Source: Nitrososphaerota archaeon (lineage in GTDB: Archaea; Thermoproteota; Nitrososphaeria_A; Caldarchaeales; Calditenuaceae). Taken from it: a stretch of DNA of 14,546 nucleotides. This document shows positions 13,372 through 13,665 of this stretch, piece after piece. Every line of letters begins with the position of its first letter. Positions within the stretch are counted from its first letter, which is position 1. A model generated the notes under the pieces. It was not told the DNA's origin and did no database searches. It worked only from the letters and a program-made list of their open reading frames with translations. The translations under genes were made by a program, and so were the position numbers. Location of the stretch: contig JAVYLC010000024.1 in the NCBI GenBank assembly GCA_038741355.1, positions 8,709-23,254 on the forward strand, in the 5' to 3' direction.

Positions 13372-13665
13372 AAAAATCGTCGTTTCTCTCTCCCGAGAGG
13401 TTTATGAACCCCTTTTGTGTCTACACCCCCTCTCCCCCCACTTACGCGGCCGTCCGGGCAGACAGCCGCGTTAGGCGGCGAGGCCGTGGTGGGGCATCGC
13501 CCCTCCCCACCACGGGGGCCCTCCCCAAAAGCCCCCCGGGCCCTAGAGGGGTCAGCCACGTCAGAGGACATGGCATTCCCGGGAGGCCTCGGCCGCCGTG
13601 CTCCCCGACAGGAGGGAAACCCCGCCGGAGAACGCATGCCTCCGGCCGGGGCCTCCTATCGGGGC
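13372..13665 (-). ncRNA. Candidate structured RNA / GC-rich 5' leader upstream of the IS110-like gene
   Basis: Very GC-rich island with long helices. (1) A 62-nt rod at 13603-13664: 13 bp (13652-13664 with 13603-13615) stacked on about 11 bp (13640-13651 with 13620-13630), with a 9-nt loop. (2) An 11-bp hairpin, 13505-13515 with 13484-13494. (3) A 7-bp hairpin, 13465-13471 with 13444-13450. (4) A 6-bp hairpin, 13569-13574 with 13555-13560. Wobble positions are G-U on the minus strand and would be C-A mismatches on the plus strand. A minus-strand T5 at 13372-13376 lies 16 nt before the ATG. Confidence 0.4.

Follow-up and report, generated by a model that had tools for sequence, protein, structure and literature searches.

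A GC-rich structured leader, probably cis-acting, in multicopy gene cassettes of Caldarchaeales archaea

In IS110-group elements the bridge RNA is encoded upstream of the recombinase gene, in the bacterial elements IS10 and IS50 transposase translation is under fold-back protection, and free-standing cassettes with homing endonuclease genes displace each other at fixed sites between genes, for example in T4-like phages. A RuvC-like, coiled-coil and Nop-domain architecture is common to IS110 recombinases, TasR and Nop5 (PMC12045711; bioRxiv 10.1101/2024.06.21.599552), and tigRNAs have two 9-nucleotide (nt) spacers that act in tandem on the two DNA strands (PMC12045711). Stem-loop tigRNAs have been described inside the tas coding sequence, whose frame they leave unbroken (bioRxiv 10.64898/2026.09.09.750476), so structured RNA that overlaps the ends of a Tas open reading frame (ORF) has a precedent. 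Here we compare with these systems a locus in a 14,546-nt stretch of DNA from a Nitrososphaerota archaeon (Caldarchaeales, Calditenuaceae; assembly GCA_038741355.1, contig JAVYLC010000024.1, positions 8,709 to 23,254), hereafter the window: a GC-rich region and, immediately downstream on the same strand, the gene of a 274-amino-acid (aa) protein. A preliminary description, made from the letters of the window, had read the region as a candidate bridge- or guide-type RNA for the IS110-like protein encoded next to it. Our analysis leads to a different reading, which we hold with moderate confidence: positions 13674-13383 (minus strand) are probably the 5′ module of a selfish cassette, acting in cis as a structured messenger RNA (mRNA) leader, and not a guide RNA.

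Among 300-nt segments of the window, 13351-13650 has the highest GC content (0.677), as the preliminary description had noted. The minus strand of 13355-13700 folds with −189.6 kcal/mol (z = −5.2; none of 100 shuffles equals it), and the plus strand has a fold z of −4.05. In the minimum free energy (MFE) fold of the minus strand, the whole leader domain (13437-13674) is closed by a helix of 13674-13664 with 13447-13437, an 11-nt inverted repeat (I16) with 91% complementarity. Its 5′ part is the P1 rod, 62 nt long (13603-13664; 5′ arm CCCCGAUAGGAGG, 3′ arm CCUCCUGUCGGGG), whose two arms form a conserved motif and which is 5′ untranslated region, since it lies upstream of the start codon. The rod is followed by a conserved core, GGCCUCCCGGGAAUGCCAUG (13569-13588), with the start codon inside, which is an identical 20-mer in L002, L009, L012, L018, L039 and L042; by a hairpin (13555-13574; GCCAUGUC / GACGUGGC, with one U-G pair) that encloses this ATG; and by a GC-rich, helix-dense linker (13383-13568), which in frame translates into a low-complexity N-terminal extension and contains an 11-bp hairpin (13515-13484). 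All these parts lie on the minus strand. The arms of the 11-bp hairpin (13484-13494 / 13505-13515, inverted repeat I9) are 100% complementary, and the core includes the palindromes CCCGGG and CCATGG. Both the rod and the 11-bp hairpin had been folded by hand before and are recovered here, the rod with arms that are conserved in relatives. A long-range pairing proposed at the same time is found in the MFE fold of the window (13585-13597 with ~13473-13484), but no conservation of it was found in relatives. At gathering score no Rfam family matches anywhere in the window, be it RNase P, SRP, a C/D sRNA, Hgc/SscA or another, and at E ≤ 10 the region 12300-14546 gives only chance-level microRNA, small nucleolar RNA and long non-coding RNA matches, with ribozyme families absent too.

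The related loci come from Caldarchaeales genomes and hot-spring metagenomes. Only a subset of the 44 loci from species-representative genomes has the GC-rich upstream segment; a search with the core 20-mer GGCCTCCCGGGANNGCCATG gave 120 metagenome loci, of which ~100 are genuine, and removal of duplicates left 87 distinct loci with an identifiable cargo gene. The core ATG is in frame with, and uninterrupted into, the cargo gene at 81 of these 87 (binomial p = 1e-31), and 45 of the 81 open loci have no other ATG, GTG or TTG within 12 codons of the conserved N-terminus of the protein. In the window, the ATG (13571-13569, minus strand) opens a 346-aa ORF in frame with the downstream gene, identical with the NCBI protein P0001, which contradicts the earlier statement that the region cannot be sensibly translated. 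The peptide encoded by the extension is not conserved; the frame is nevertheless open. Other details of the earlier description change too. The T5 at 13372-13376 is no terminator but consists of two Phe codons of the conserved N-terminus RRFFADIHR, and the conserved protein begins ~9 codons upstream of the ATG at 13355 that had been given as the gene start. The small hairpin at 13386-13399 belongs to a longer motif of the window's clade, CCCGAAAAGAGGCTTATAAACCTCTCGGGAGAG, which marks the sharp 5′ boundary (13416) of a unit repeated among the window's paralogues; this unit starts downstream of the GC-rich part and ends near 12371-12363. In the alignment of relatives the clade motif (13386-13416, minus strand) reads as an archaeal BRE/TATA-promoter-like sequence plus a palindrome (AAAAGGGGUUCAUAAACCUCUCGGGAGAGAG), and all blastn matches begin at 13416. 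As an actual archaeal BRE/TATA promoter it was rejected, since its spacing to GTG or ATG does not fit cleanly, and we call it promoter-like only. L001, L012, L032, L039, L042 and the window (13385-13356) have GUA or AAA, and no ATG, GTG or TTG, at the site of the start codon of relatives, which is GTG in L002 and L003; from this it follows that initiation occurs elsewhere (in the window, at the leader ATG) or that these copies are decaying.

The hairpin around the start codon carries traces of selection on RNA pairing. Its consensus is GCCAUG-NN ... NN-CRUGGY, and both variable positions are paired in 88 of 92 distinct leaders, with the combinations AC/GU (50), GU/AC (10) and UC/GA (8). In 20 of the 92 the hairpin contains a G-U pair, which the other strand would have as A-C. 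The 3′ arm occurs in codon phase 2 in 61 leaders and in phase 0 in 31, so it is the nucleotides and not the amino acids that are conserved. For the GGACCCUG motif, reading by eye found different phases in L049 and L048, and an automated count gave 27 versus 2, almost all in one phase. The rod arms are >90% conserved in 85 leaders, with 94.9% of alignment cells paired, and rod pair 61/123 is U-G in 48 sequences and C-G in 32; together with the start-codon hairpins, this extends to the whole family an earlier observation of gene-strand G-U pairs in the window. The rod 5′ arm could alternatively pair with the core just upstream of the AUG (96.6% satisfied), and the rod 3′ arm with the adjacent UCUCCGGCGGGAGG. 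In leader variant 1b (L002, L012, L042) the rod 3′ arm is missing, yet the pairing of the 5′ arm with the core is kept. On these alignments the GC-rich region appears to be NEVERTHELESS under RNA-level selection, and the part of the preliminary description that proposed a structured RNA on the strand of the gene stands, in that the structure is conserved, with some covariation and no Rfam family.

The leader is not tied to one kind of gene. One and the same leader is found before four cargos that are unrelated: F1, the family of the window's protein; F2, a second TasR-like family; F3, a LAGLIDADG endonuclease; and F4, a methyltransferase operon. F2 aligns to F1 in hhalign with 96.8% probability (E = 2e-10), and its profile matches TasR (9mty_A) at E = 0.04, with KSDENDV aligned to KNDENDS, and Pfam PF01548 at E = 0.07, below threshold. 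F3 is a helix-turn-helix plus LAGLIDADG_3 protein (1e-17), and F4 consists of a small ORF, a DPPY-type methyltransferase gene and then F1. The leader core stands upstream of only 8 of 38 F1 genes. The 5′ part of the region matches L009 and L018, where it lies 1.4 kb upstream of F1, with the small ORF and the methyltransferase gene between. At the other end of every cassette with enough downstream sequence there is a terminal motif (12363-12397 in the window, minus strand), in which CCAGCCAAAC precedes first a C/U-rich run and then a U-run. The distance from core to terminal motif is set by the cargo: cassettes with F3 have 931-978 nt, those with F1 or F2 have 1057-1218 nt (1195 nt in the window's case), and the methyltransferase version has ~2330 nt. 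Eleven loci lie directly downstream of priL, the primase large-subunit gene, with F1, F2 or F3 as cargo, and in L018 and L009 the F4 operon occupies the same priL-like upstream position; the identity of priL is Pfam-confirmed for L018 only. The cassettes are mosaics: the rod goes with the genomic context, the part after the ATG goes with the cargo, and one linker occurs with F1 in some loci and with F2 in others. None of the loci has an empty cassette, with the leader joined directly to the terminal motif, and none has locus-specific direct repeats at its cassette ends: the longest substring common to both flanks of a cassette has a mean length of 7.1 nt, compared with 6.9 nt when the flanks are taken from different loci.

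Further observations concern the cargo and the sites. The F3 genes of L084, L149, L163, L069, L089, L093 and others have the 5′ leader in frame and the 3′ terminal motif, lack the guide stem-loop described below, and are found at sites of the kind that TasR-like genes occupy. Beyond the terminal motif, at a distance of a few tens of nt to ~160 nt, there is an opposite-strand tRNA gene in L149 (4362-4435, Asn), L160 (3407-3480, Phe) and L089 (5830-5905, Pro), and by eye only an intron-containing tRNA was seen beyond the 3′ end of the cassette in L102, which suggests that besides priL the cassettes prefer sites adjoining tRNA genes. Most flanks (for example L018, L053, L066 and L141) have a generic motif, CAAACCCCC(U), twice: once shortly before the leader rod and again in the 3′ terminal motif. 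Its two copies are identical over up to 12 nt in L018, without locus-specific duplication; a recombination core common to the cassettes, or what is left of a terminator, would be conceivable.

The conserved body of the F1 protein is encoded at 12531-13382 (minus strand), from RRFFADIHR to the stop codon at 12533-12531, and F1 proteins are 274-284 aa long. Neither sequence nor profile finds anything useful in Pfam, NCBIfam, PHROGs, PADLOC or the sequences of the PDB, and for F1 and 52 homologues Pfam gives zero matches, including PF01548 and PF02371. More than 150 homologues exist; those whose source is named all come from Caldarchaeum or other Nitrososphaerota metagenome-assembled genomes (MAGs), except one that bears the label Thermofilaceae. 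Copies are numerous: the window's MAG has at least 7, JZ-1 bin 59 has 9 loci and PSS.bin.6 has at least 16, and many of them lie at the ends of contigs. An AlphaFold2 model built on a 53-sequence alignment (pLDDT 90.6, pTM 0.85) finds as top matches in a Foldseek search of the PDB the TIGR-TasR structure 9mty (chains A and B; E = 2e-7, TM 0.66), followed by the IS110 recombinases ISCro4 (9t56) and IS621 (8wt6/8wt9), with E from 8e-6 to 2e-4 and TM ~0.6; after these come only TasH (9vzx, E = 0.065) and then unrelated helical proteins. The modeled fold indicates that the F1 protein has the RuvC-like, coiled-coil and Nop-domain architecture. Residues D7, D49, D54, D99 and E116 are conserved, and in a comparison with the IS110 motif KTDxxDA the first Asp is Ala or Ser in F1. 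Alignments of 26 and 53 sequences contain no invariant or near-invariant Ser; a conserved Tyr stands at position 226 of the 274-aa query, and residues 223-237, presumably where the IS110 serine β-hairpin would be expected, form a short loop in the model, with no β-hairpin. Because no serine is conserved and the loop is short at that place, F1 seems closer to a TasR-type effector than to a bridge recombinase that depends on a serine. The label IS110-like, as used before, is thus apt at the level of the fold, with IS621 and ISCro4 matched, but the best match is TIGR-TasR, no IS110 Pfam domain is detected and no serine is conserved.

A second structured RNA, outside the stretch described before, lies at the 3′ end of the gene and overlaps its stop codon. 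This rod-shaped RNA (12388-12550, minus strand; MFE −103.6 kcal/mol, z = −7.7; with the terminal motif reaching to 12363) is a candidate single-unit, dual-spacer guide. In the window it folds into a long rod around a 15 + 15-nt internal loop and a terminal hairpin. In an alignment of 30 sequences the proportion of paired cells is 88.6%, two-sided changes occur at 20 pairs, and the hairpin between the spacers (12458-12482) has compensatory changes at 9 of 9 pairs, which none of 500 shuffles reaches. RNAalifold gives the outer part as a three-way junction, the single-sequence MFE as a rod, and internal sequence duplications make this outer fold ambiguous. The element is present at 26 of 30 evaluable F1 genes, compared with 8 of 38 for the leader core; it also follows several F2 genes and does not follow F3 genes. 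Its internal loop consists of two 9-nt variable segments, each between short conserved motifs, which fall into three subtypes, α (GGCCGG-UAUGAC-N9-RAC-hairpin-GAC-N9-RAC-CCGGCC), β (GGYC-N9-MAC ... UGGUC-N9-MAC) and γ (GGGCU-N9-UAAU ... GGCU-N9-UAAU), and a variant of the window's clade (GCN-N9-UAC-hairpin-GCC-N9-UAC). Pattern matching extracted 36 distinct spacer pairs of the α, β and γ types and returned nothing with the pattern of the window's clade, from which six pairs, the window's own included, were parsed by eye. By analogy with L002 and 36 other spacer pairs, the putative spacers of the window are A, GUCUUAAAU (12485-12493, 5′ limit ±1 nt), and B, UAAAUAAAU (12447-12455), both on the minus strand. 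Judging from the sequences, the cognate guide of F1 is most likely this dual-spacer stem-loop at the 3′ end of the gene (12550-12388), which the protein may bind and use for DNA targeting.

We searched for targets with A + the reverse complement of B, and with the reverse order, allowing gaps of 0-2 nt and up to two mismatches in one half; in 0.95 Mb this gave 8 matches, against 4.8 for shuffled spacers, and the sole cluster consisted of self-matches. No complementarity of the spacers to flanks or element ends was found in the 0.95 Mb. Scans of a viral collection with the AT-rich spacers of the window gave 34 + 22 matches in unrelated viruses, which we took as chance. Nor did Tandem Repeats Finder and a repeat search find a tandem array near the gene (12300-14546), where there is one unit per gene. 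Among the 36 pattern-extracted pairs (L006-L164), the last 3 nt of both spacers are mostly U or A (UUU, UUA, UAU, UAA), and the center of a target would therefore be A/T-rich, which may reflect a core or seed preference. In two loci spacers A and B are reverse complements over 6-7 nt (L001, ~1500-1570, ATCTACA / TGTAGAT; L152, ACGTAT / ATACGT), so that either the target is a palindrome or the guide is closed by pairing with itself.

These results can be brought together as follows. We picture a selfish gene cassette of ~1.2 kb, with many copies in Caldarchaeales archaea, whose leader and 3′ terminal motif would be constant flanks, while the cargo gene inside them is swapped for another at fixed places in the chromosome. 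The 5′ module would consist of the untranslated P1 rod, the core with the true start codon in a hairpin, and the GC-rich folded stretch, through which the ribosome would read in frame to reach the functional protein, in the window a TasR-like effector with RuvC, coiled-coil and Nop domains. The leader would act in cis on the mRNA, at translation initiation, for whichever nuclease gene sits behind it, and initiation would probably be gated by mutually exclusive GGAGG/CCUCC pairings, the rod on one side and the 5′ arm with the core on the other. Such gating, for example against read-through from the host gene upstream, would be akin to insertion-sequence fold-back control. Because the leader precedes unrelated cargos, is missing at most F1 genes and has no paired variable loops, it is not the guide of the effector, and cis control of cargo translation seems to us the most economical account.

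Several points weigh against this account. L001, L025 and L033 are copies from the window's clade that have no leader, which makes it look dispensable there. In variant 1b the leader ORF stops at a TAA and F1 follows in a different frame with its own GTG; we considered a programmed frameshift there and rejected it, as there is no plausible slippery site, and termination followed by re-initiation at the GTG is more likely. In the window copy, the clade's promoter-like motif stands between leader and gene, so the fused 346-aa ORF could be a recent accident, and given this motif (13416-13386) and the leaderless copies, expression of a gene of this clade is probably possible in the absence of the leader. 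Part of the core's invariance is a matter of ascertainment, because the metagenome loci were found with the same 20-mer. Covariation in the rod amounts to one pair changed on both sides, its arms being nearly invariant, and for that reason covariation does not separate the two folds of the rod region. Translational gating by the leader, though probable in our view, draws on the analogy with bacterial insertion sequences, and that the leader is transcribed and translated is read from the DNA.

How do other explanations fare? The original one, in which the region programs the adjacent protein, gains from the IS110/TasR fold of that protein, from a conserved, structured region on the sense strand, and from the gene order of IS110 elements. 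A further point in its favor is that stem-loop tigRNAs may overlap the 5′ end of the tas coding sequence (bioRxiv 10.64898/2026.09.09.750476). We nevertheless think it most unlikely: the region also precedes LAGLIDADG and methyltransferase genes, which need no guide, it is found at only 8 of 38 F1 genes, and nearly every F1 gene has a far better candidate at its 3′ end. The GC-rich region is without large internal loops and paired 9-nt variable segments, its variable parts being hairpin loops and one short A/U bulge, and inspection of three aligned leader types revealed no dual-spacer or tigRNA-like layout. In relatives, moreover, the region is a coding extension that begins at the conserved ATG, a result the preliminary description had itself named as speaking against a guide. 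An independent trans-acting non-coding RNA or self-cleaving ribozyme that merely neighbors the gene is very unlikely as well. Its length of ~240 nt, the terminal helix that closes it, its cross-species conservation and its distance of 1.4 kb from F1 in L009 and L018 would suit such an RNA, but it matches no Rfam family, ribozymes included, an in-frame ORF always follows immediately, and no copy standing by itself turned up in ~0.95 Mb of related DNA.

The two remaining explanations set the RNA aside in different ways. If the region were a coding N-terminal extension only, its RNA structure would be a by-product of GC-rich, low-complexity codons; the frame open in 81 of 87 loci and the annotation of the extension by NCBI agree with this, and GC-rich sequence folds well anyway, as the plus strand does (z = −4). 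Most family members have no extension, however, so the protein does not need it, and both the unconserved peptide and a hairpin arm that occurs in phase 2 (61) and in phase 0 (31) are hard to square with selection for protein alone, as are the compensatory double changes that keep the start-codon hairpin and a conserved rod upstream of the ATG. We regard this explanation as unlikely. A primary role at the level of DNA has a small but appreciable probability. Leader and terminal motif would then be the ends of a mobile cassette, as recombination sites or homology arms, with the RNA fold secondary, and different cargos enclosed by one pair of conserved ends at a given chromosomal site, the mosaic pattern, the palindromes CCCGGG and CCATGG in the core, CAAACCCCC at both boundaries and the many copies per genome, many of them at contig ends, all speak for it. 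Against it, the G-U pairs of the sense strand and the A-C/G-U exchanges point to selection at the RNA level, and neither locus-specific direct repeats (7.1 versus 6.9 nt) nor an empty site was found. A DNA-level role is compatible with a cis-acting leader and does not exclude it.

Beyond the leader, we put forward tentatively, as a possibility we consider less probable than not, that the window's cassette belongs to an unrecognized archaeal class of mobile element, in which a TasR-like protein and a single dual-spacer guide form an RNA-guided homing or maintenance endonuclease, interchangeable with LAGLIDADG genes, and that it is possibly an archaeal intermediate between IS110/TIGR-Tas effectors and the Nop5-fibrillarin C/D ribonucleoprotein (RNP). 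The latter idea comes from the methyltransferase operon in which some members lie and from a guide laid out like a C/D small RNA (sRNA). A lineage of this kind was inferred but not found by Vaysset et al. (bioRxiv 10.1101/2024.06.21.599552). Apart from this idea, the 'hypothetical proteins' of this clade, annotated with ragged N-termini, are by their modeled fold proteins of the TasR/IS110 kind missed by Pfam, with their real start probably inside a conserved RNA structure, and TIGR-Tas-like systems, so far described mainly from phages and parasitic bacteria, extend to chromosomal, multicopy, single-guide cassettes of thermophilic archaea. Alternation with LAGLIDADG genes at the same sites suggests a testable natural role for Tas nucleases, in homing or in competition between selfish elements. 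The leader is an unusually large RNA under a dual constraint, of fold and of a frame open in any phase, and a possible model for translational control in archaea; compact, thermostable RNA-guided nucleases (~280 aa, with 18-nt dual guides) may interest tool developers.

Some features in the neighborhood deserve mention in their own right. In L018 (3290-3370) and L009 (~2105-2180), the methyltransferase ORF upstream of F1 is interrupted at the same place, after DPMAGIGGT, by a short insert between inverted arms of 11-14 nt that differ between the species yet remain complementary (CTATGGCTGGGATA/TATCCCAGCCATAG versus CTATGGTGGGT/ACCCGCCATAG); a small archaeal intron is one possibility, a hairpin inserted into a protein-coding gene another. 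A small ORF at 14197-14514 of the window (plus strand; MRLKLPRTAWQSLNIPDKGEY...) has no Pfam match and is divergent from the cassette, and similar DNA lies at variable distance upstream of the family gene in L002, L003, L005, L025, L032, L033, L039 and L043. A conserved non-coding block with small hairpins (e.g. ACACCAUGGAGGUGU) occupies 13852-13994 (minus strand). Blocks of this type stand directly upstream of a second GC-rich leader type in L003, L005, L007 and L032, and this leader type has the distal motif CCGACAAGGCNCAGGC in common with other leader types. At 5126-8235 (plus strand) a 590-aa SMC_N / AAA_23 ATPase is followed by a 241-aa ORF without match and a 202-aa ORF that is weakly MAGE/Nse3-like (E = 3.5e-4); the three look like one operon, and an Lhr-type helicase follows on the other strand (8228-11074).

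How, then, does the system relate to those already described? Insertion-sequence fold-back resembles the proposed action of the leader, in that the start region is sequestered by upstream pairing and the element lies directly downstream of host genes in the same orientation; unlike in IS10 and IS50, the host is an archaeon and the structure is much larger, reaching ~50 codons into the ORF. Homing cassettes offer another parallel, since one site, with the same conserved flanks, has a LAGLIDADG gene in some genomes and another nuclease gene in others, although here, unlike in T4-type cassettes, the alternative occupant is a putative RNA-guided nuclease with its own guide and the setting is chromosomal and archaeal. 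With the IS110 elements IS621 and ISCro4 the locus has in common the RuvC-like, coiled-coil and helical C-terminal architecture, the multicopy state and a structured non-coding segment by the gene. However, F1 gives no match to PF01548 or PF02371 and has no conserved serine, and where the bridge RNA has two binding loops there is only one in the guide candidate, while the GC-rich leader is without large variable internal loops. The order of stem, motif, guide, motif, loop, motif, guide, motif and stem is that of an archaeal box C/D sRNA, and the Nop-domain partner and the methyltransferase gene directly before F1 in L009 and L018 recall the box C/D sRNA-Nop5 particle. But RUGAUGA and CUGA boxes are not conserved across the 30 aligned 3′ elements, the box-like strings of the window (UGAUGU, 12418-12413; CUGA, 12534-12531) are not kept in relatives, no Nop5 structure is among the 50 Foldseek matches listed, and the methyltransferase resembles DPPY-type N6/N4 or UPF0020 enzymes, not the fibrillarin of the C/D RNP.

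The likeness to TIGR-Tas of the stem-loop type goes further. The F1 fold matches TasR best and has the Nop domain and coiled coil by which such proteins are recognized, the F2 paralogue and TasR both carry a K-x-DEND motif, and the 3′ RNA, not the GC-rich leader, has two 9-nt spacers around a loop or hairpin, with short motifs and a stem; as in some stem-loop systems, part of the guide candidate lies within the coding sequence. The spacers recognized by TIGRFinder are flanked by box C (CNA) and box D (YG) motifs; TIGRFinder is an array-detection tool (bioRxiv 10.64898/2026.09.09.750476). Here the flanks are UAUGAC/GAC ... RAC, GGYC ... MAC or GGCU ... UAAU. Further differences from TIGR-Tas are the single guide unit per gene in place of a tandem array, the extended hairpin as the loop between the spacers, the chromosomal archaeal host with at least 16 related loci in one genome, and cassettes that are interchangeable with LAGLIDADG genes, have a structured 5′ leader in common and encode proteins that escape Pfam. 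Thus, we suggest from sequence and modeled fold that the system would work like a stem-loop TIGR-TasR, which it resembles in its fold and in its two spacers and from which it departs in array and motifs. What is unusual is the combination of chromosomal, multicopy archaeal cassettes with one guide per gene that alternate with LAGLIDADG genes at the same sites, and, equally unusual, a common structured leader kept as an open reading frame and a methyltransferase operon in some members.

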